A stretch of DNA of 64,000 bases from Octopus sinensis (Eukaryota): NCBI RefSeq assembly GCF_006345805.1, contig NC_042999.1:171864001-171928000 (forward strand), given 5' to 3'. This document shows positions 6,046 through 64,000 of the stretch, piece after piece. Numbering within the stretch: position 1 is the stretch's first letter; the number at the start of each line of letters is the position of its first letter. The translations under genes were made by a program, and so were the position numbers. The notes beneath the pieces were generated by a model. The model was not told the origin of the DNA and ran no database searches. It saw nothing but the letters and a program-made list of their open reading frames with translations.

Positions 6046-6140
6046 TAATATATATGTATATATGTATATGTGTGTGTGTGCGTGTGTTTGTATGTGTATT
6101 TAATATTTTGGCCTGACGAGTATATGTCGATCAGTGTATG

Positions 6141-6474
6141 GGTGTACCTAAGACCCAGACTGCAAAATAGATGCAACACACAATGCTGGACGGAGTCCTA
6201 CCTATAAAGGACAGTAGCAGGATGGCAAAGTTTCAGCTACTTGATATCATCCACATTCGAGGTCTCTTTCTGTTGGATCTACTTGAGGAACTCCGCAGTG
6301 TTAGTTGAGATAATAATAATAATAATGCCTTAAGCAACGAGAAGATTGATTTAATATTAATCTTTATTTTGTACAACGTTCATCTCGATCCATCCTGCTA
6401 CTGTCCTTTATAGGTAGGACTCCGTCCAGCATTTTGTGTTGCATCTATTTTGCAGTCTGGGTCTTAGGTACACC
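6141..6474. repeat. Near-perfect 85-bp inverted repeat with ~164-bp spacer
   Basis: 6141-6225 is the reverse complement of 6390-6474 with about one mismatch. Confidence 0.95.
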
Positions 6475-6623
6475 ATGCATACATAAAGTTGTGTCTCGCT
6501 AAACATCCTGACTTTAGGCTGTCATATTTTTATATGCTCGTTCTACAAAATAAAGATTTCTACAAAATCTGTTTTCGTTACTTAAGAAATTCTAGCAGAA
6601 TGTATGTATGTGTGAGTGTGTGC

Positions 6624-7721
6624 GTGTGTATAAACGACAGTGAACAAACGATACGAAATAGCGCTGAACATGATATGATATAAAACTATTTTTAACAGGT
6701 TGAACTTGAAATACTACCCAATGCTTCTTGGTGCAAGAAAATACAACGAGCCATGATGTACAGTGTCAAAATACGGATAAATGAAAATGGTTTTAAATAA
6801 GATTATTGGCAGTTGTCCTTTGGGTATGAAGCATTACTTTAGTAGATTCATTAAACAGCCCACGTCAATATTTGGTGTATTAGTTGTTCAGGTGTCCGGG
6901 AATACAGTTTAATAGAAATAGTTTTGTTATGAACAAATTTGTCAGCTTAATATTTCAAAACTCAGTAACATACATTATTACTTAGGTGGGGGACTGCTTT
7001 TTGTGAAAATAGCACTGTTACAAATTTGGCCGTGTCAGATGGCATAGCACTTGATGAATCCCATATAACTATGCGTTATGTATTTGTGTATGGATAATGA
7101 AGAGTAAAAATGATGATATACATCAGTGTAATGAAGTCCTTTTGGAAATGCAGAAGACTGTTAAATTTGCAAATCTCACTGTGATAGATAATGCATAGTT
7201 ACAGAAGAACCAGCAGCTAATCTTATGTGCGTTGACAGCAATTTCTTTAATAAGTTATCTTGTTGATGAACACTGTGGATTGTTGCATATTAGGCACAAT
7301 TTCACTAACACAGAGTCGACAATTACAAACTTCATGAAAGGGTATAAGAAATGACAACAATGGTCCATGAGATGCAGAATTGCTGGGTTTTGAGATATTA
7401 AGCTGGCAAATTTGTTCATAACAAAACTATTTCTATTAAACTGTATTCCTGGACACCTGAACAACTAATACACCAAATATTGACGTGGGCTGTTTAATGA
7501 ATCTAAAGTAATGCTTCATACCCAAAGGACAACTGCCAATAATCTTATTTAAAACCATTTTCAATTATCCGTATTTTGACACTGTATATCATGGCTCGTT
7601 GTATTTTCTTGCACCAAGAAGCATTTAGTAGTGTTTCAAGTTCAACCTGTAAAAAATAGTTTTATATCATATCATGTTCAGCGCTTTTACCTCTCGTTTG
7701 TTCACTGACATTTATACACAC
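6624..7721. mobile_element. Fold-back element with ~345-bp inverted arms and ~410-bp spacer, bounded by (TG)/(CA) tracts
   Basis: 6624-6968 aligns with the reverse complement of 7380-7721 with scattered substitutions and small indels. Confidence 0.9.
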
Positions 7722-8149
7722 ATACACACATATATGTGTATGTTTGTGTTTGTGTGTGAGTGTTAAGTCACAGATATTTGTCATTTTATACACCCCCTAT
7801 CGTTTTCTCGTAGAATGATACATTAAGGAGGAAGTGTGGTGTGGGGATGCATATTTATCTTATCCCTGGAATTTATGGAGCAAAAATCCTTTTTGTGTCA
7901 GTCATCGCTTGACTTCACCGGCTGTTATATTAATGAAGGTACTTTTGATGCAAACGGTACGACGGTAGCTCTTTACGAGAGCAAATTTTATATTGATGAC
8001 ACCTGGTAGAATTCACAGAGTAAGATATAAAAAGGAATCTGTTTGGCTGTGAGTTTCCCTCTCTTATAGTAAAAAAGATCTCGCATAAGTATTTTTAGCT
8101 ATCACAAATATCTATTTCTGTTTAAACAGCGCTTATGCAGACAAGTATC

Positions 8150-8765
8150 TCTGGTGGAAAAGGGACAAAATATTACAGGAACAATACATAATTGTTCTTG
8201 ACAGATTTAGAAGTTCAGATTTATGAGCAAACCGTATAAACCCCAACAACTTCAAGAGATATTAATTGGCAACTACAAGCGATACGTTGTTGACGGTTTT
8301 ATATCTTCGATACTACGTTTTGATCAAATTATTTATTTCGTCAAAATAATGAATAGCATAAATAATAGTATTCAATAGACCATACGCAAAAACGCAGACC
8401 TTTTATGGATATTTTAGTCAATAAAATTGACACAGACATAAAAATAGACATTACTTCAAACCAGCATACGAAAAACAATATTTGATTATTAATAATTGCC
8501 ACCACGAAACAGCCAAGCAAATACACAGTTCAAATTTGAAAGAATAATCTGCTCAATTGCATCTCTTTCAGAAACACTGGATAGACGACGTCAAGTGTTG
8601 AAATATTAAGGAAATTACAATTTGAAAAGTAGTAACAATCAAAAATAATTAAGGACGGGATACAACGAGTCGGGGATAGTGAGGTAAAAGCTACCAATGA
8701 AGAAACAGACATCTTACAAAGCTTTCTTTCATGTATCAAAACACGGCCTATCAAATCTAGGAGCA
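8150..8765 (+). mobile_element. Decayed Penelope-like element reverse transcriptase fragment
   Basis: Reads YKRYVVDGFI (RYVDD motif) at ~8274, then PFMDILVNK and YFKPAYEKQYLIINNCHH, resembling the PLE RT/thumb consensus FLD...YRKPT..YL...S.HP. Confidence 0.7.
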
Positions 8766-15331: not shown

Positions 15332-15772
15332 TATTGGGTCATCCCATAAATAATGCGGGTTTTTTTTCAATTAACAAAGGAGCATACTCGGCATATTTTG
15401 CTTTATGAGTTCAATAAAGACATCAACACAATGGAAAGTGCGAGGAACATTAATGCAGTATATGGGGATCGGACAATAAGCGTAAGCAAGTCTCGGCTGT
15501 TGTTCCAGAAATTCAGAATCAGAAACTACAGCCTAGAAGACGAGCCTCGCCCTGGAAGATCAGAAGAGCTCGATGAGGACGTCCTGCAAACCATGATGGA
15601 ACCAGATCGTATCAAAACTGTCGTTCAAGTCAGCGGTAGAAGAAAAACGACTATCTTTGCTTTCAGGACGAATTGTGTTCTTCCATCAGGATAAAGCTCG
15701 GCCACATAAAGCGAAGAGCACATACCAAAGGCTGGAGCAGCTTGAATGGAAACGATTCATCCATCACCACAA
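15332..15772 (+). mobile_element. Internally deleted mariner-family transposon remnant
   Basis: TA-flanked TIR-like start tattgggtcatcccataaataatg; KEHTRHILLYEF...ARNINAVYG...FQKFR..SLEDEPRPGR (HTH) joined to IVFFHQDKARPH (HDNARPH-like catalytic motif). Confidence 0.85.
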
Positions 15773-16085
15773 TACTTTCAAAACGCTACAAACTTCCAAT
15801 GTTTCACTTTTAGCTGTCTGGAAAGCAGGGAAGTTTCTTCTGATATACTGTCGTTTATCTGTAATTTCTAACATGTCGGATTTTCTGGCGATGGCCTGGT
15901 ACTATTAGGTCTTCTATTTCAGTACAATTCTAGGCATGTGTGAAACATCAGACAAAAGTAAAACATTGGGAGGTCTTAGCTCTTTGAAAGCTGGTAGGTA
16001 ATGAGTCGGTGAGGTAGAGGATGGGGTATTGAGTGTTTTGTGAAAAAAAATTAAACACACTTTACATAGTTTTAATATAATGTTT

Positions 16086-20519: not shown

Positions 20520-21343
<824 letters not shown>

Positions 21344-22679: not shown

Positions 22680-25338
22680 TCAATGGGAAATCAGAAACAG
22701 AACTGATGAACTTGATAATCTATTATCAACAATTACATGGGAGACTTCAATCTGCCCAATGTCAGATGGCCGAGGGCCTTTCTCTCCAGGAATGACAAGA
22801 TGTGAACGAGGACAGGCGAGGTCCCTCCTGAACCTCATCAACACCCTGTACATGGAGCAGTAATACTCCAACCAACCAGGGCAGGTAACACACTGGATCT
22901 CTGCTTCACAAATGACATGGATCTCATCCATAATGTGAAAGTGACACCGACACTACTCTCGGATCACAACATGATAGAGCTGACCAGGTACGGGCCCAAA
23001 AGAGAGCAGGACATGCAGCCTACAAGAAACCCTCAAAATCTTTCCAGCTTGAACTACCATAAGGCAAACTGGAAACAAATTGAGAAAGAGATCCTCAAAC
23101 AAAACTGCCTAAAGTCTCTCCTCGCCAGACATCGACGTGAAACTTCAACAAATCATGTCTGTAATGCAAGCCATATGCTACAAATGTGTCCCAGAGAGAA
23201 AGGCCACTGTACACAAGAACAAAATCCCCAGAGAGAGGAAAATTTTAATGAGACGGCGTACGAATTTTCAAATCGCCTAAACAAACAGATTGAAAGCAGG
23301 AAAAGTCCCGCCTAAAATAAAACTGTTGGAAATCGAAAAATGTCTGCAACTCTCCCATGAAAAAGAAAAGAGCAGACAAAGAAGCCTGGGCTATAGAAAA
23401 CATAAAATTAACCCAGAGCTTTCTACAGGTATGCCAAAGAAACAGCTACAGTGCACTGTAGAATAGGGCCACTCCTCGAAAAGGATGGCACACTTACAGG
23501 AAAACCAATGAGGGTAAGTGAAATACTGAATGAGCAATTCAAGAGTGTTTTCACTCCACCCCTTGGGCTCTCCACAAATCACCAATCCAACTGACTTTTT
23601 TACCACTGCAGATATAAAATCAGAGGCGGCGACGATAGATTACATCGATATAAAGGAAGACGATGTAACCAAGGCTATAGATGAAATGAAAACAGACTCA
23701 GCTACTGGCCCCGATGGATTCCCGGCAATCCTCCTAAAAGCATGTAGAGAGTCCTAGCAAGACCACTGCAGTTCCTCTTTCAGAGCTTCCTTGCAGCTGG
23801 CAACTTCAGGAAAACTGAAGGAAGGTTAAAATATGCCCCATCATAAAGGAGGTAGCAGAGCGGAAGCCAAGAACTATAGACCTATCTCTCTAACCTTACA
23901 CATCAGCAAGGTCATGGAACGAATAGTCAGAAGGAAGCTGATCACCTTCCTTGAGAGAATGACTTGCTGCCGAACCAACATGGTTTCCGACCAGGGAGAA
24001 GCTGTTTAACTCAGTCCTACAACACTATGACTGGGTGCTGAAACGGCTGCTCAACCACTCAAATGTGGAAGTGATATATCTCGACTTTGCAAAGGCCTTT
24101 GATAAAGTCGATCATGGAATGATATGTCACAAACTGCGTGATCTCAACATAGTTGGAAAACTGGGAGAATGGCTTCATGACTTTCTGAAGGATAGAAGTC
24201 AGGTGGTAGTAGCCAATGGGGCCACCTCCATTAACACACAAATAGTGAGCGGTGTTTCCGAGGGCACTGTTCTGGGACCACTACTGTTCATAATGGCCCT
24301 CTCAGATGCCCTCAGCCACGCAGAGAGCACGATCACAAGTTATGCAGAGATGATACAAAAGTTTCACAGGCAATACAGAACCCTGAGGACACTAAACACC
24401 TGCAATGTGAGCTGGACGAAATATACAAGTGGGCTGAAAAGAATAGCATGCAGTTCAATGCTGGAAAGTTTCAAGCTTTATACTATCAGCATGCAAAACT
24501 GAATGCAATACCCAATGAATACATTGGACCCGAGGGATTGCAATCCAGAGGCACAATCAGTGCGTGACCTGGGTATTCACATGAGTGATGACGCGACATT
24601 TCATGTACATGTTGCTAAACTGACAATGAAATGTAGACGGCTGGCTGGATGGATTCTTAGAACCTTTAGAACAAGAGAACAAGAAACCATGATGGTCGTC
24701 TGGAAGACACTTGTCCTAAGCCACTTGACTATTGCTCTCAGCTATGGTCACCATCCAGTGTCAAGTTGATCACAGACCTTGAGGCGATCCAACGAAGCTA
24801 CACAAAGAAGATAGCCTCTATGCAGAATGTAAGCTACTGGGAAAAGACTCAAGAGATTAAAATTATATTCCCTGGAGCGTAGGCGGGAAAGATATGCCAT
24901 AATATACATCTGGAAGATCCTGGAGGGAAGGTTCCTGAACTTTGGCATCGAGAGTTTACGCAAAATGCCAGAACTGGGCGCCACTGCGTGGTGCCTAGGA
25001 CTCCAACCTGCCATCAAGATGTAGGACAAGATTCTGTGATAGCCTGGGCTTCCGAGGCCCACAGCTCTTCAATATCCTCCCGAAGAACCTGAGAGACCTG
25101 CATGGGGTGGATACAGATGTCTTTAAAATGAAGCTGGATCTCTTCCTGTCAGGTGTCCCAGATGAACCAACTTCACGGCAGGAGGGGCAGATGAGGGCAG
25201 CTGCATCGAACTCTCTCATGCACCAAATAACAGTTGCTAGAAAGCCTCCATGAAGTGAAACCAAGTAGCAACACCAAATGGCGGTGCCCCAGCATGGCCA
25301 CAGCTCATAAGCTGAAACTAGAATCAATCAATCAATCA
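22680..25338 (+). mobile_element. 5'-truncated LINE ORF2 (APE endonuclease + reverse transcriptase), frameshifted; CR1/L2-group-like
   Basis: MGDFNLP, LSDHNMI (APE); ATGPDGFP, NYRPISL, QHGFRPGRS, YLDFAKAFDKVDH, SGVSEGTVLGPLLF, RDLG (RT); C-terminal FKMKLDLFLSGVPDEP; 3' tail with (aatc)n. Confidence 0.95.
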
Positions 25339-27628
25339 AAAATTACTATTTTAATTAGGCAACCTTAACTATAGCTCTGATTCTATTCCATGTGTTGTAT
25401 AATGGGATGAAAATATTCTATATCTCCATAAAATAATCCTGTTAGCCGGAAATTTTAAATCATTTAGTAAATGGTGCTGGATAAAAACATTTAAAACAAT
25501 GCAGAATTGGTATATGTAATCATGAAACCTTTTGTAACGTCAAAAGTAGAATGTAGACAATCATCTTAGACGTTTCACTAAATACTTCAAATAGCTGTTT
25601 TATAAAAACCATCTTAGAAGGAGTTAACAGTTGGTTGCACACCAGTACAAGAGATAAGTATATAAGACACAACTGAAAAAAAAATTCATTCGTAGCATTG
25701 CAAAAACAAACTTTGTGTTTAAGAATAAAAGCACTCAACAGTAAACGATAAGCTTACTTTGACTTTAAAATTGTGCATTAGCTTCGAAAAATCTTTTTAA
25801 AGGCATTATCTCTAAGAACATTGTGAATTCAATAAGACTGAAAAACGCACATGCAAGAAGACGTGTACTAATATACAGCACAATGCTAAACAAATCTGCA
25901 CTCTCTCCGAAAGCAAATATAATTGGAAATATTTTGATAAACTGGCTTGGTTACAAATAGATTTTGGGTTTTGCTACCAACATGCAGTTGTAACGATTGC
26001 ACGGCAGGAAACTCCACACTACAATAGCTAATTCCATGATCTTTCAATGATGTTGCCGAATTGTTCACGGTTGGAGAAAGAAAATGATTGTAACTAAAGG
26101 TATAAGGAACATACTAAAGAGACGTTACTGTAAATCTACTTTTACGGGGGTTTTTTTACACAAAAAAACTACTTGAAATTATAACTATTAACTATCTGAA
26201 AATATGCATAGTTTACAAACTGGTTTTGTTAACTAATATACTGAATGTAATCTGGCCATGACAAATATACATACAAGAATATCAGAGTTGTGGGAACTGA
26301 TTCCTACATTAAAACTCATAATATTAATGTTTTATCTACGCTTTCTATTCTACAAAATAATTCCAAAGTTACCTAGATATCTATAACTAAAAATTCATAA
26401 TTATATTTGAACAACAGTTGAGCAAATAATGACTGATTTACACAAACCTTATATGCTGCAAACAGGAGCTTTCTTTAAAAGGCAATATTCCAAAATAAAT
26501 GTACACTGCCAGTACTGTGGTAGACGTTTGAGTGATTTACTGATCAAACTCTAAAATGTTTTATAATATCTGGAAGCTTTCACAACAAATTGTGATACAC
26601 AACATTTCTTTCGCAACATAACAGATGTTGGCGATACTTTAGGGTAGGTATAATTAGTCCTAGAGTACATTGCAATGTCATGCTGACACAATCAGTGGAA
26701 TATTAAGTGAATAGAAGTGTGCAAAGGGAAATTCGAAATTGTACGTACCATTATTGAAACATTTCAGAACCAGTCGATTTATGAAGAAAATCCATGGATA
26801 TCAACCACGGTGAAAATATGTTGCAGAAAAACTATCCCCACCTAAAATTGTTATTTTGGAATTAATAAATGCCACATAAATTTGTGTATTACTATCCACT
26901 TAAGGCGATGGTTTTAAGAAACATACCTTCATCTAATTAAATGTCAAGCATTCCCATTTCAAAGCGAAGACCGAAGGACAGAATAAGATTAAAGCAGTTT
27001 TATAGACGTATCAGGTTTTCAAATATTCCTCTCACCTTTCTTCAAACAAAAATTAGAGCAATCTTTGAAAATAAAACTAACCAAGCCTACATACGTTAAG
27101 TTCCCTAAGATGTACATCAGTGGCCAGCCCTTAAATAAAGTTGCATAATCTGAATGCCCGTGGAAAATAGCTAGATGCATATGCAATTGCTAGCTTTCTA
27201 TGCAATGGAAATGTACGCAGGACAAATATAAACCAAGTATACTATATAATTGACTATATATGTAGCTGTACGCCTTGTAATCTCTGTATTCATTGTAATT
27301 TTTTTTCAATATACACTCAGTAAAATACTTGTAATCGAGCGAAGCAGACATAGGATTTACCCATCGGATTATATTCAGTGTGATTGTGAAACTTAGTAAT
27401 CCCAGTCGCCTCGTACAACTCGATGCAGTTGACGACACCCCGGATTATAACAGAGTAAATTTTAAGTAACCGCCTGGATTATATATAATCCAATGAAAAA
27501 TAACAGACGACGGATGGCAGCTCATTACAACTGTTTCTTACACATTTTTAAAATAAAGGAATGAGAACAATTTCTTCCTTGCAATACACCATTATTATCA
27601 GATGAAACATAATTTCAAAATACAAAAA

Positions 27629-27842: not shown

Positions 27843-27899
27843 ATAATTTCGAAATACAAAGGAATATCCCAAGAATACGGCAAAGGCGTGGCTGAGATC

Positions 27900-28200
27900 T
27901 GTTGTGGCTTACCATGAGGCTAATACCTATATTTATGTTGGCTGCTCTGTAAATCTAAAGCAACACTTATGCAATCGCTATTCATCATTTGAATTAAGAC
28001 ATAGGACAGGCAGTATATCTCTAGCTACAAAGATTTGGGAACTTACAGACGACAATGTTAAAATTTTATACCGTTTGCAAACAGTAGATACTGGTGCAGA
28101 TTTTGCTGCATGGAGCTGTTTGAAACATGAAAGAGATCAAATAGTGAAAATCTAATTAATAATAATCTAGGCCTTCGTCTTTCTAGTAGACATTATGCTA
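27900..28200 (+). mobile_element. Decayed Penelope-like GIY-YIG endonuclease fragment
   Basis: YIYVGCSVNLKQHLCNRYSSF...SLATKIWELTD resembles the PLE motif YIG...FKxRxxNHxxSF...LSxxIWxLK. Confidence 0.55.
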
Positions 28201-29487: not shown

Positions 29488-30133
29488 ATATCTCAAGTCA
29501 TATACGTTATTATTATAGAAAAAATATTCAGTCTTACAGCTGTTTCTGGGATATCCCAGAGTATGAGATCTTCCGTTATCGGTGACAAATAGGGAAAATG
29601 AGAAGGGTATAGATTAATGAAATGACGACAGAGAGGTCAGGAGTACAGGAATGAGAAGATGAAGAAAAAGAAGGAAAAAGAAGCATAAACGTTCACAGTT
29701 CAGCCTTCCGATCGTGTATAAATGAATCCAGAACTTCTTAGGTGCAACCGTGCGTAAATTCATGTGGGTTAAAGTCCTGATAGCGTAAATATTCAGAAAA
29801 AAAAACCCAAACATAGCAATGTTCAATAACAGAATGGTAGTGTATGTGGCCTAAACCACATGGATTTACGCAGGATTGCACCTAAGGACTTATGGAATTA
29901 TTTCTACAAGATCGGAAATTTGAACTGTGTAACTTTATGATTCTTTTTTCTCGTTCTTCATCTCCTTATTCCATTACTCCTGTCCTCTGTGTCATCATTT
30001 CACTAATTTGTAGCCTTCTTATTTTCTCCTTTTTTCTCCGATGACTGAATATCCCATACTCTGGGATATCCTCAAAACACCTGTAAGACTGAATTTCTTT
30101 TCTAATAATAATAATGTATATGACTTGAGATAT
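29488..30133. mobile_element. Diverged fold-back element (~285-bp arms), one hammerhead motif per arm
   Basis: 29488-29774 aligns with reverse complement of 29850-30133; HHR motifs at 29531-29586 (-) and 30034-30089 (+). Confidence 0.88.
29531..29586 (-). ncRNA. Type I hammerhead ribozyme motif (partly decayed)
   Basis: gtca-ccgataa-cggaagatctca tactc tgggatatccca-gaaac agct gta-agac; sister arm supplies ccgatga and gaatatccca/tgggatatcc stem II. Confidence 0.7.
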
Positions 30134-30209
30134 TTGCCTTGCCTTAACGGTTGTTGTCCTCTTTAACAATTATATATCTGCTATAACGGAAATGTTCAAT
30201 GGCTCCGTA

Positions 30210-30303
30210 AATACCTTCTTGGCTATAACCTTGGAGCCATAGTAATCCGTTACAGTACCCAGTCGTTTAGGTAAGAAGTGAAGTAGACTCCCGTATTATA
30301 TAT

Positions 30304-30335
<32 letters not shown>

Positions 30336-30422
30336 ATACGGGAGTCTACTTCACTTCTTATCTAAACGACTGGGTACTGTAACGGATTACTATGACTCCA
30401 AGGTTATAGCCAAGAAGGTATT
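30210..30422. repeat. Near-perfect palindrome (~90-bp arms) centred on (TA)n
   Basis: aataccttcttggctataacc...ctcccgtatta (TA)n taatacgggag...gccaagaaggtatt, about two mismatches. Confidence 0.95.
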
Positions 30423-30452
30423 GGCTATAACCTTAGATTCAAGATCAAAGTT

Positions 30453-30803
30453 AGATTCAAGATCAAATCTAACTTTACTTGTGCCTCTGAAAACATAATT
30501 TATGTCATAAAATGCTCGGGCTGCCACCAAGACTACGTGGGATCCACGGGACTATCACTCAGACGTAGATGCACACTGCATCGACAACAGATTGCATTCC
30601 CAGAATACAGAATGATACCTTTTAGTGAGCACATTGAGAAATGCACAAAGCAACTACTACCACAATTTTTAATCTTTCCATTTTACCAATGTGCTATCGG
30701 ATCATCAACACAAATTAGACTAAACAAGGAAACATTCTTCATTGAAAAGTACAAGCCCAGACTTAAACATGCCAACATACTGATACAGAGAAATTCACAC
30801 TAA
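30453..30803 (+). mobile_element. Penelope-like element GIY-YIG endonuclease domain (5'-truncated, frame open)
   Basis: RFKIKSNFTCASENIIYVIKCSGCHQDYVGSTGLSLRRRCTLHRQQI...SEHI...RLNKETFFIEKYKPRL: IY...YVG motif, catalytic R, H, E and P-L-x terminus typical of PLE endonucleases. Confidence 0.9.
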
Positions 30804-30933
30804 GGGAAAGGAAAAAAATTTTAAGCGATTATCTCTCTTACACCGGAAGAAATCACTCATTACCTCCCTTTATTTAGAACTATTTTAAACATAAACATAA
30901 CGATGACTCTATTCAACATAAACATAACGTCGT

Positions 30934-30972
30934 AAGAAATTTGAAAAGCTAAACGCGAAACCGGTCTTTCTT
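30934..30972 (+). ncRNA. Degenerate minimal hammerhead in the PLE 3' pseudo-LTR
   Basis: aagaaa-tttgaaaa-gc taaac gc-gaaac cg gtc-tttctt: 6-bp stem I, GAAAC..GUC intact, core mutated; 130 bp downstream of the GIY-YIG ORF on the same strand. Confidence 0.6.
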
Positions 30973-31145
30973 CTAAACTATGTCATTGTAAGAGAAAAAA
31001 AAATGTTATATTCTTCAAACATATTGACGCAAATATATATATATTTTAACCTTTAAGCCTTCTGTAGTTTTTTTCACTTTTTACTATTTTCTATATATTC
31101 AACCACGTGCTTTCACAAACCAACTTTCTTGTATATATATAATAT

Positions 31146-36785: not shown

Positions 36786-36825
36786 CACACACGCACACAC
36801 ACATACACATACGTATATTTATATA

Positions 36826-36908
36826 TATAGTCAATTCAAATAAAACAGAGAAAAAGAATTATGGTGCTTCAGCATGACCACAGCCGCATGGCTGAGATGA
36901 GTAAAAGA

Positions 36909-36944
<36 letters not shown>

Positions 36945-36964
36945 CTATTCTACTCTTTGACCCG

Positions 36965-36997
<33 letters not shown>

Positions 36998-37080
36998 TCT
37001 TTTACTCGTGTCAGCCATGCGGCTGTGGTCATGCTGGAGCACCATATTTCTTCTTCTCTGTTTTATTTGATTTGACTATA
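36826..37080. repeat. Palindrome of two convergent LINE/SINE 3' tails across a (TA)n centre
   Basis: tatagtcaattcaaataaaacagag...gagtaaaagagt (36826-36910) is the reverse complement of ~36996-37080. Confidence 0.9.
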
Positions 37081-37175
37081 TATAAGTACTCACATAAATG
37101 AATAGATGTATGTGTACATGGATCAATTTGTATGCTTAGGTTTAAATTAAGTAACGATTGTATATATATATATAT

Positions 37176-44113: not shown

Positions 44114-44161
<48 letters not shown>

Positions 44162-44167
<6 letters not shown>

Positions 44168-44496
44168 GGAGTTTAACGTAGGTATAATTCAAATACGTTT
44201 AGTTCCGACACATGTTTCGAAGATTTCACTGATATTATTCCAAAGGAATAAATGGTGTAAAGCATCTTCTCTTCAAGGAAGTGAAGAAATGAAACTCGTC
44301 AATAATACATTTTCACAGAAAATGATGAATATGTATATGTTAACATGTCTTATTGACGACTTTCATTTCTTCACTTCCCTGAAGAGATTACATTGCTTTA
44401 CACCATTTATTCATTTGGAATAATATCAGTGAAATCTTCGAAACATGTGTCGGAAGTAAAAGTATTTGAATTATACCTGCGTCAAACTCCATTTAT
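44162..44496. mobile_element. Fold-back element (~150-bp arms) abutting (TA)n, one hammerhead per arm
   Basis: 44162-44310 vs reverse complement of 44345-44496; HHRs at 44203-44280 (-) and 44373-44457 (+). Confidence 0.92.
44373..44457 (+). ncRNA. Type I hammerhead ribozyme motif
   Basis: acttcc-ctgaaga-ga(aga)tt...aatcttc-gaaac atgt gtc-ggaagt; the sister arm has gaagat/atcttc stem II but ttgaaga core. Confidence 0.8.
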
Positions 44497-44652
44497 TTAT
44501 TTATATATTATACAAAAATTCCACTTAAACCCGAAGTTTCTACCTTTAAAAACAAGGCGTTACAAACTTTTTACTTGTGTGATTTTTTGCTACCCTGGTA
44601 ACTATTTATCTATTTTTTCCGTGTTAATTGTTAACAAGGGAAAAATACACTC

Positions 44653-50692: not shown

Positions 50693-51214
50693 GCTAGGCC
50701 AGTGGTAATGGAAATTTCAAATAATTCTGATCACCCTTTGATATTATTAATTATCGATAAATTTTTGGAAAGTTTTCGAATTGAAAAGCCAGTATTTAAT
50801 TTACTGCCAAGGAGCTGCGCTTGCGCGGTAGATTTGGAAAATTAGAATGTATAAGCACGAGGTATATAGTGGATTGTCTCGTGTATATATATATAATCTA
50901 AAGTGTACCTGCTGAAGAACACTTCGCCTAGCAAATTATTTTATTTGCTAAAAAACGTCTGAAACCATTGGTCCAGGAGTTAGATGGTAAATGTTTTTAT
51001 TTTTCATTCCCTTCGAAATTTTATTCCTAATAGTGGTTTGTAATTTTACTGTCCTCTCTTGCGTGCAAGGAATCCTATGATGGATACCTCTTGTGTGTTT
51101 AAATATACACCGTATTTGAATAAATAACATATAGTCTATTGACTAAATGTTTACAAGCTAGGCCACTGATAATGGAAATTTCAAATATTTCTGATTACCC
51201 TTTGATATTATTAA

Positions 51215-57475: not shown

Positions 57476-57520
57476 GTGTGTGTGTGTGTGTATGTTTATT
57501 TATGTATATGTATATATATA

Positions 57521-57929
57521 TATATTATATAGAGGGTACTATTATTCATAGGTACCGCACGCTAGGAGGGACTCTTGCAGTCAGAACTACTAAAATAAAA
57601 AAATTGTACCAAATGCAAAACTTCAAAGCAAGTCATTTAAAAACAGAAGTTACATATCACCTGTGATTTCGCAATCAATGCAGAATATGCATTATATGCT
57701 CTTCAGTGCAACGAACTCAAGACATGTAAGGAAACAACACAATATAGCATACCCGACAGCCAACCGTAGAATTCGTCGTAGCATGTACGAATGTTTATCT
57801 TTACATATCTATGAAAATGGCGGGCTTATTCGCAATGCATTTCGGTAACATTTTAGTAGTTCTGACTGCAAGAGTCCCTCCTAGCGTGCGGTACCTATGA
57901 ATAATAGTACCCTCTATATAATATATATA
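57521..57929. mobile_element. Element with perfect ~76-bp terminal inverted repeats in (TA)n, enclosing a hammerhead
   Basis: 57521-57596 equals reverse complement of 57850-57925; internal HHR. Confidence 0.92.
57649..57712 (-). ncRNA. Apparently intact type I hammerhead ribozyme
   Basis: gttgca-CTGAAGA-gca tat aatgca tattc tgcatt gat tgc-GAA-atcac ag gtgat-A-tgtaac: all three stems pair, core complete, AUA cleavage triplet. Confidence 0.88.
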
Positions 57930-61704: not shown

Positions 61705-61736
<32 letters not shown>

Positions 61737-61739
<3 letters not shown>

Positions 61740-62011
61740 CAAAACTAAGAGGAATGACCATTAAAGTGGACATCCTATATGCTAAACATAGACGTCAAAT
61801 CGCCATTACCACGAAGAATGTGTTCTCAAGAACACATTCTTCGTGGTAATGGCGATTTGACGTCTATGCTTAGCATATAAGATGTCCACAAATCGCCATT
61901 GCTACGAAGAATGTGTTCTCAAGAACACATTCTTCGTGGTAATGGCGATTTGATGTCTACGTTTAGCGTATAGGATGTCCACTTTAGTGGTCATTCCTCT
62001 TACTTTTGTAT
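61737..62011. repeat. Nested double palindrome abutting (TA)n
   Basis: Two hairpins centred on gttct-ca-agaac (~61827 and ~61920) inside outer inverted arms tacaaaactaagaggaatgacca / tggtcattcctcttacttttgta. Confidence 0.93.
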
Positions 62012-62094
62012 GTAACACAATTTTTAATCTTCGGATTTTTAAATATGCTAAGCCACTGTTTTTAATTGATTAACATAAATTTCTATCCTTATTA

Positions 62095-63065: not shown

Positions 63066-63129
63066 TTATACATACATACATACAAACATATATATATATA
63101 TATATATATACATATATATATACATATAT

Positions 63130-64000
63130 ATTATATATAAGGGCTTAGTAAAATAAATTACTTTGCCACATACTGAACTCATTAGAAATAGCAGCTAAAG
63201 AAATTTCTTTAGCTATTTCTAATACTTAAAGAAAATCTCTCTCAGATAGTGTTTGCTCAAACCAACTCACACAGGTATGGGGGAAAAAACATTAAAAAAT
63301 CAAGTGCAAAGGTTATTTGAGAACATACGTTTCTAGATTAGTCAAATCTACATTTCTTTCGTCAGCTCAGAACTCCTTGATTCGGATTTGGGAACACTGA
63401 AAGTGGGAGCATATCCTTTAGGCTTCTTATCACCTCTAGATTTCCGCTCGAACTAAAAGTGCTATCAAATTCGAAATATGCAAGCGAAGAATTTCTGCTC
63501 TCCCCTCTCCACCAGCGTGGGTTAAAATTGACAAACACTATGTTTTATCTGTGAAAACCGACGCATTAAACAGAGAGAAATGAATTATAATTTCAACAAT
63601 TGAGGGTAAAATTAATTAATTATTAATCAATTTCACCAAGTATTCAGTATGTAAAGGGACCATTTTAGGCGAATTCAAAATATTACATTATATATAAGGG
63701 CTTAGTAAAATAAATTACATTGCCACATACTGAACTCATTAGAAATAGCAGCTAAAGAAATTTCTTTAGCTATTTCTAATACTTAAAGAAAATCTCTCTC
63801 AGATAGTGTTTGCTCAAACCAACTCACACAGGTATGGGGGAAAAAACATTAAAAAATCAAGTGCAAAGGTTATTTGAGAACGTACGTTTCTAGATTAGTC
63901 AAATCGACGTGGCAAAGTAATTTATTTTACTAAGCCCTTATATATAATGTAATATTTTGAATTCGCCTAAAATGATCCCTTTACATACTGAATACTTGGT
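63130..64000. mobile_element. Young partial-tandem (557-bp unit) plus inverted repeat element with hammerhead motif; runs off window end
   Basis: 63130-63348 repeated at 63687-63905; 63909-64000 is reverse complement of 63635-63726; minus-strand tgag-ctgacga...gaaac gtat/gtac gtt-ctca at 63318-63369. Confidence 0.88.

Follow-up and report, generated by a model that had tools for sequence, protein, structure and literature searches.

Two decayed head-to-head copies of a likely Penelope-like 3′ end carry a hammerhead motif with C at core position 4

Hammerhead motifs are found in several groups of Penelope-like elements. Cervera & de la Pena 2014 (PMC4209133) described metazoan hammerheads of a min-HHR type and of a type with a palindromic helix III, which combine a type I topology with a short stem I, a long stem II, an extra base after A9, a palindromic helix III and U-rich and AU-rich flanks, and pairs of them on opposite strands, 100-700 bp apart, have been reported. 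Elements of the Hydra clade and PLE-X (Craig et al. 2021, PMC8557442) are likewise similar to our family in their (TA)n sites, inverted 5′-truncated copies and one-sided tails, and Poseidon_Ac of Anolis (Frangieh et al. 2024, PMC11167929) in its pLTR hammerhead, AT-rich targets and a tail that arises through internal initiation. Even in dimeric form, Penelope min-hammerheads have weak activity (PMC4209133), and some Penelope-like clades have no hammerhead (PMC8557442). In vitro insertion by Poseidon_Ac was unaffected in catalytic hammerhead mutants (PMC11167929); the mutants assayed were of C3 and G8, not U4C. The U4C change is itself known from nature in a viroid hammerhead, where it considerably lowers activity in vitro and the viroid stays infectious (Ambros & Flores 1998, as cited in PMC3088659), and one type III hammerhead had low activity when single letters of its CUGA were changed (PMC9901934).

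Here we describe a repeat with a hammerhead motif within a 64,000-nt window of Octopus sinensis DNA (the whole stretch that was analysed), which is AT-rich, animal-type DNA with many microsatellites. From comparison of sequences we read the locus as two decayed, head-to-head copies of what is likely the 3′ end of a Penelope-like element, whose C at core position 4 (C4) likely came from a master copy and is likely carried by most copies of the family. We put the probability of this reading at roughly 0.6.

Self-comparison of the window revealed a long inverted repeat at 29488-30133 (646 bases), with arms at 29488-29771 and 29852-30133 that agree at 233 of 281 aligned columns, with 48 mismatches and a further 4 gap columns. 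A-to-I editing was considered as the origin of the arm differences and rejected, as 22 of the 48 are transitions and an A/G excess is absent. No third copy of the repeat lies within the 64-kb window; outside it, the repeat is an abundant, high-copy family in animals. Contigs matching positions 29488-30290 at 80% likeness numbered 4062, 2012, 3870 and 446 in four of 24 runs (X1, X6, X15 and X22, respectively), which carry four organism labels and come from four studies; X22 is guessed to be RNA, and its 446 contigs do not show transcription. Summed depth over the core was about 600 times that of a single-copy contig in X1, a figure that is not a copy number and that comes from assembled contigs, which drop rare variants.

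The family contigs also define the extent of the two copies. The left copy (29488-29851, minus strand) is inverted and 5′-truncated, and its 3′ end adjoins a TA/TG microsatellite at 29488. Family contigs run through 29812-29851 (rows 29816 and 29820 of the comparison with the family) so that the left copy takes in the centre of the palindrome; they then break at 29852 and continue past 30133. The right copy (29852-30293, plus strand) belongs to the same family and is the more strongly 5′-truncated of the two: family contigs have loose ends before 29852 and are colinear with it to 30255, matching pieces 29950-30177, 29957-30255 and 30036-30247, with loose ends behind 30177 and 30255. Judging by a loose-end consensus, we infer that 30256-30293 is part of this copy after a short deletion. 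Both copies are truncated within about 270 nt of the hammerhead motif, and single contigs span their head-to-head junction (29851/29852) in X1 (29601-29885, 0 other letters) and X6 (29607-29885, 4 other letters), although X1 may be the source of the window itself. In all four runs, some family contigs step back 34-36 bases at 29859-29894 with a few letters between, which is a short tandem duplication in a subset of family copies.

Beyond the right arm lies a 44-nt stretch (30134-30177, plus strand) that is absent from the end of the left copy. Many family copies end at 30177 into (TA)n, with loose ends behind this position in 61, 27 and 56 contigs of X1, X6 and X15, and the stretch is likely the one-sided 'tail' described for Penelope-like insertions (PMC8557442). 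TA tracts flank 29488-30293 on both sides, and loose ends of the family also enter TA repeats. The sequence-only reading had described 29488-30133 as an older palindrome. The inverted repeat is real, but 30133 is not an element end, since the right copy runs to at least 30255; the unit is thus an inverted, 5′-truncated pair between TA tracts, in which a 364-nt inverted copy (29851 to 29488) is joined head to head with a longer copy (29852 to about 30293). Instead of a self-contained palindrome, it shows an arrangement already published for Penelope-like elements (PMC4209133, PMC8557442).

A decayed hammerhead motif can be traced in each arm, its parts following one another in hammerhead-like order as the arm is read outward. 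In the left copy it is of type I and occupies 29531-29586 on the minus strand: stem I pairs 29583-29586 with 29531-29534, the core (ccgataa, 29576-29582) has C4 at 29581 and G8A at 29577, stem II spans 29547-29575, GAAA lies at 29543-29546 and the helix III palindrome at 29536-29543, and the predicted cut falls between 29535 and 29534. In the right copy the motif occupies 30034-30089 on the plus strand, with the core ccgatga (CCGAUGA in RNA, 30038-30044) and C4 at 30039, followed by an extra C at 30045, stem II at 30046-30073 and the site residue A17 at 30085. Core positions 3-7 thus read CCGAT in both arms, where the usual hammerhead core has U at position 4; the C that the sequence-only reading had noticed at the second core letter is present at 29581 and 30039 alike. 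Its stem III, a palindrome with a GUA site, fared less evenly: GUA is present in both arms, but the perfect palindrome ACAGCUGU is found in the left arm only, as C at 30080 breaks it in the right arm, where AAAA also replaces GAAA and G12 is lost. The stem II 5′ strand proposed there, ggatatccca, occurs in neither arm, the string being the self-complementary 3′ strand read on the other strand. Stem II pairs at 9 of 12 positions in each arm. Neither arm retains an intact hammerhead, the left because of G8A and the right because it lacks G12 and the helix III palindrome, so that a variant hammerhead 'in both arms' was an overstatement: both are decayed, and the variant motif exists at the level of the family alone.

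At that level the motif is coherent. With the family-majority letters at 29566, 29570, 29577 and 29583, the left arm regains G8, stem I and two pairs of stem II and becomes a type I hammerhead motif with a self-complementary helix III. In the resulting family motif, stem I is 4 bp long, A9 is followed by an extra C, and the long stem II has C facing A at its base; GAAA, an 8-nt palindrome and GUA are present, as are C3-G8, G5, A6, A9, A15.1-U16.1 and the self-complementary helix III. Set against the type I core C3 U4 G5 A6 N7 G8 A9, both arms depart at position 4 and the left arm also at G8; the G12 A13 A14 A15.1 block with an NUH site is present in the left arm (GAAA, GUA), the right arm being without G12; and with the four majority letters three helices surround the core, comprising 4 contiguous pairs in stem I, 10 of 12 in stem II and a self-complementary helix III. 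The distance from the predicted cut site is 47-48 nt to the left end and 92 nt to the shared family end at 30177. The six best-scoring hammerhead-like sites elsewhere in the window all have U4.

Compared with the published sets, the extra C after A9 and the U-rich and AU-rich flanks fit the Penelope min-HHR consensus (PMC4209133). An ACAG/CTGT helix III with A17, as in this family, is found in 3 of the 34 rows of PMC8557442 (Hydra-1_aMil, Penelope-1_NV and Penelope-1_SK), and in PLE-X1_cBra of the same paper stem II has C facing A at its base. The family described here differs from the set in PMC4209133 in having A between C11.1 and G12; one of the GAAA entries listed there reads AGAAA. Poseidon_Ac has an ORF that starts inside its hammerhead (PMC11167929), whereas the frame from the core ATG closes early in our family owing to an extra TT after 30089, which both arms lack (the insertion is seen in 6, 4, 11 and 1 contigs and in loose-end consensuses). 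C4 occurs in 0 of 44 alignment rows compared from PMC4209133, which read CUGA or UUGA only, and in 0 of 34 from PMC8557442, both being lists compiled with descriptors that require U4. Probe words from the family retrieved no matching consensus from the PMC8557442 supplement.

The sequence-only reading held that the U-to-C change predates the duplication and may be a family trait. The first point is supported, as at 8.5% divergence per arm the same change would arise twice with a chance of about 0.3% per site. The second is supported indirectly, by the rows in which family contigs depart from the locus: among the 40 of 164 rows listed, none gives canonical U at 29581 or 30039. Changes private to the left arm 4 and 2 bases from 29581 are contradicted by 94-99% of family depth in those rows (94-98% at 29577, with 112 contigs in X1, and 97-99% at 29583, with 117 contigs in X1, each in four runs). 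A private change at 29581 would outrank the lowest listed row, whose maximum share of 0.894 is the lowest among those listed, whether rows are ranked by maximum, mean or minimum share, by depth or by contigs, under a ranking rule that we infer. Since the private neighbours are listed and a U4 row is absent from the 40 of 164, C4 is probably not a local mutation, and in each run it probably accounts for more than a tenth of the family depth. As for how many copies share it, 28 listed rows fall at arm positions: 22 give the other arm's letter, 4 a third letter or facing gap, and 2 are shared departures, at 30103 and 30132, both outside the core zone. The arms thus lie near the family majority, and together with the low chance of parallel change this favours C4 in the majority of copies, which we consider quite likely. 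An X15 joint from 29573 to 30040 would keep C4 if it were opposite-strand, and was given no weight. Pattern scans meant to count C against U at position 4 returned 0 hits in metagenomes and 0 in viral contigs; of the 28 and 21 hits from two further scans, 0 of 49 loci resembled the element at E<0.05. Protein libraries searched for spurious frames in which C or U alters a residue gave no candidate in one search and 5 in another, none at E<=10.

Other accounts of C4 bear on this estimate. In one, most copies of a Penelope-like family would keep CUGAUGA and C4 would mark a smaller but sizeable subfamily (above about 10% of copies), of which the locus is an insertion. Canonical U at 15-89% of depth would fit the 40 of 164 rows listed, and the arms share the 2-nt gap after 30089 and the letters at 30103 (84-91% of depth against) and 30132 (92-94% against). 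All of these shared departures, however, fall within the outermost 45 nt, a zone of closer resemblance between the arms (3/51 against 45/230 mismatches, p 0.022 with a cut chosen post hoc), a likeness that fits later arm-to-arm conversion not reaching the core, as 30030-30060 holds 7 mismatches; the other listed rows in the arms contain 0 shared departures in 26. On balance we regard a subfamily as unlikely. It is more improbable still that C4 is private to the locus or of some other origin, and a U4C change private to one decayed copy, then duplicated in place or copied between arms, is very improbable. Local inverted copying of decayed sequence does occur next to the locus, in the fold-back at 30210-30422 described below, and the outer arm ends share changes; but a private U4C should be listed as 29577 and 29583 are, and it is absent from the 40 of 164 rows, and the 7 arm differences in 30030-30060 remain, with the family siding with one arm wherever a row is listed. 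Most improbable of all is that the motif never descended from a hammerhead and only resembles one by chance around a strong hairpin. This would account for the absence of a hammerhead among the 150 of 168 Rfam matches listed for the window, for neither arm being among the best 40 of 144 hits of our first descriptor scan, for fold z-scores of -1.13 and -1.02 for the 71-nt motifs, and for a count of 10 CCGANGA in the window against 8.9 expected. Under a looser motif score, devised after the motif had been seen, dinucleotide shuffles reached the raw arms in 1/150 (left) and 3/150 (right) cases; the left arm with the four family-majority letters scores 22, a value that 0 of 150 shuffles match, their maximum being 12. 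Against chance, too, each of those letters, read independently of the model, improves the hammerhead fold, and the spacing is that of published Penelope motifs (PMC4209133, PMC8557442).

The family is likely a Penelope-like jumping gene, as indicated by its unequal 5′ truncations, inverted copy, one-sided tail, TA targets and 3′ hammerhead. It shows a hammerhead motif, with a variant core, near its 3′ end (pLTR); copies of unequal 5′ truncation, one of them inverted and joined to the other at 29851/29852, with a one-sided tail at 30134-30177; and insertion in (TA)n or AT-rich DNA. We also considered whether the sequence is something else, with C4 still family-wide: a non-autonomous hammerhead repeat of retrozyme- or SINE-like kind, or a fold-back DNA element. 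Non-LTR retrozymes form head-to-tail tandem units of a few hundred bases; a direct repeat of the unit is absent within the window, though other loci may still hold one, as the family joints listed were 15 of 310. MITEs and fold-back DNA transposons have symmetric terminal inverted repeats bounding the family unit; here it is on one side only that the family extends beyond 30133, and contigs from non-orthologous copies break at 29852. We found no homology to RT or endonuclease in the family: none of 150 proteins related to the neighbouring endonuclease had a tblastn hit within 29488-30293, a C-terminal profile of the same 150 reached a best E of 0.37 against the repeat unit, and a word search for the family's endonuclease end found nothing, which is weak evidence. 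For the Hydra clade the expected features (PMC8557442) are an endonuclease without CCHH, a CxCX5C linker, and RWK and DKT motifs. A non-Penelope origin is nevertheless distinctly unlikely, because the unit is asymmetric, with different 5′ truncation points, one copy extending at least 120 nt past the other's end, and ends into (TA)n, as in PMC8557442; in the inner end, from a hand-read loose-end consensus, W, P and G are also spaced as in the endonuclease end of Naiad_Obim, which is suggestive only.

The sequence adjoining the right copy has a history of its own. A younger fold-back at 30210-30422, with arms identical at 103 of 105 positions, is centred on a TA tract (30294-30338) and copies the end of the right copy. 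Both of its arms share a deletion after 30255 that is absent from the family loose-end consensus, and by this comparison it is a later, local event. It stops exactly where homology to a second Penelope-like endonuclease starts (30423). At the joint, 30219-30235 recurs as a 17-nt direct copy at 30421-30437, next to a tandem duplication of 18 nt, which suggests that the flank was copied by snap-back at the nicked TA target during the later insertion. A candidate 5′ splice site at 30270 was rejected, as the other arm and the family loose-end consensus read AGAT. The endonuclease homology (30423-30803, plus strand) is a GIY-YIG fragment of a second Penelope-like element (Pfam GIY-YIG E 0.003, below cut-off) that is 68% identical to relative P0001 from 30423; one relative, of about 745 aa, has both RVT_1 and GIY-YIG, and two others have one domain each. 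We rejected it as part of the C4 family on the basis of its 3′ motif, which has a different helix III. This second element (30423-31130) is 5′-truncated, with the GIY-YIG fragment, a stop at 30803 and (TA)n at its 3′ end. It contains a decayed hammerhead-like motif with GAAACCGGUC near 30935-30978, and its 3′ flank resembles that of Hydra-1_oBim (PMC8557442).

Hammerhead-like motifs and inverted repeats recur across the window. A second fold-back at 44145-44512 carries hammerhead motifs on both arms (44379, plus, CUGAAGA; 44276, minus, UUGAAGA), has a long stem II, adjoins a TA tract and keeps U4, and its sequence is unrelated to 29488-30133. The motif at 27526-27601 (minus strand) has a helix III close to that of the C4 family (ACAGUUGU, GUA). 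It faces away from an endonuclease-like remnant at 27847-28155 (plus strand), which by eye is like the Hydra-type sequence in PMC8557442 and has no Pfam hit, and a SINE-like repeat lies between the two. Further motifs at 50912-50973 (plus), 57655-57706 (minus) and 63322-63365 (minus) have canonical cores, the latter two in or near inverted or repeated units (57517-57929, 63127-63908). More long inverted repeats at 61734-62014, 36822-37084, 20794-21001, 6135-6483 and 6616-7729 make the window unusually rich in such structures. At 8244-8520, tblastn gave weak matches (E 1e-4) to Penelope-like protein P0122 in its RT region; by eye, 22806-24567 and 15350-15908 look like decayed frames of a LINE-type endonuclease/RT and a remnant of a mariner-like transposase.

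With regard to activity, the family motif would fold as a dimer-type Penelope hammerhead, two copies pairing via helix III. The predicted helix III duplex of two copies has an energy of -11.1 kcal/mol, and in a linked dimer the predicted cross-pair probability through helix III is 0.92. With the majority letters, the hammerhead secondary fold is not the minimum fold, at -11.7 against a predicted minimum of -16.1 kcal/mol. C4 is predicted to perfect a competing 4-bp hairpin over the core, UCCG/CGGA round AUGA, which is 2.2 kcal/mol more stable than with U4 and lies 1.8 kcal/mol below the hammerhead fold; this may reflect function, chance or the template from which the C arose. The family hammerhead with U4C is most likely a weak or protein-dependent cutter, and in an active element the dimer would cut after GUA slowly or only with protein help. 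We regard as doubtful a further model in which a Penelope-like lineage would have fixed a working U4C hammerhead, present in hundreds to thousands of copies in several species, with the C4 hairpin hiding the core in the monomer and dimerisation or an element protein switching it on.

In the simplest reading, a master copy with a weakened ribozyme would have spread anyway, which it could do because hammerhead cleavage is probably not required for insertion. At this locus, an endonuclease would have cut a (TA)n tract, and reverse transcription of the element RNA would have stopped early twice, giving the 364-nt inverted copy and the longer copy, each of which would then have decayed by about 8.5%.

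The palindromic arrangement and U4C as a natural variant are already known; a transposon family with U4C appears to be new. We found no such family in the literature searched, and since Lunse et al. 2017 (Penelope hammerhead variants), the likeliest source of U4C variants, was outside that search, as were the supplements of PMC3088659 and PMC9901934, its novelty is provisional. The substitution is the same as in the viroid, but there it is a variant of a viroid ribozyme (PMC3088659), whereas here it likely runs through a transposon family of animals that is high in copy number and has a dimer-type fold.

The locus at 29488-30293 is itself dead, and its palindromic shape is ordinary for the Penelope-like class. 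The significance lies with the family, which would have become widespread while likely carrying a substitution at a core base that hardly ever varies, and so would offer a natural experiment on the need for cleavage. If the U4C family does not cut, cleavage would be something that these elements can do without in vivo; should it cut, as a dimer or with a protein, U4C would be a tolerated natural core in animals. In either case, searches that require CUGA undercount hammerhead-bearing families, and were a working U4C lineage to prove true, whole CCGA hammerhead families would be invisible to CUGA descriptors.
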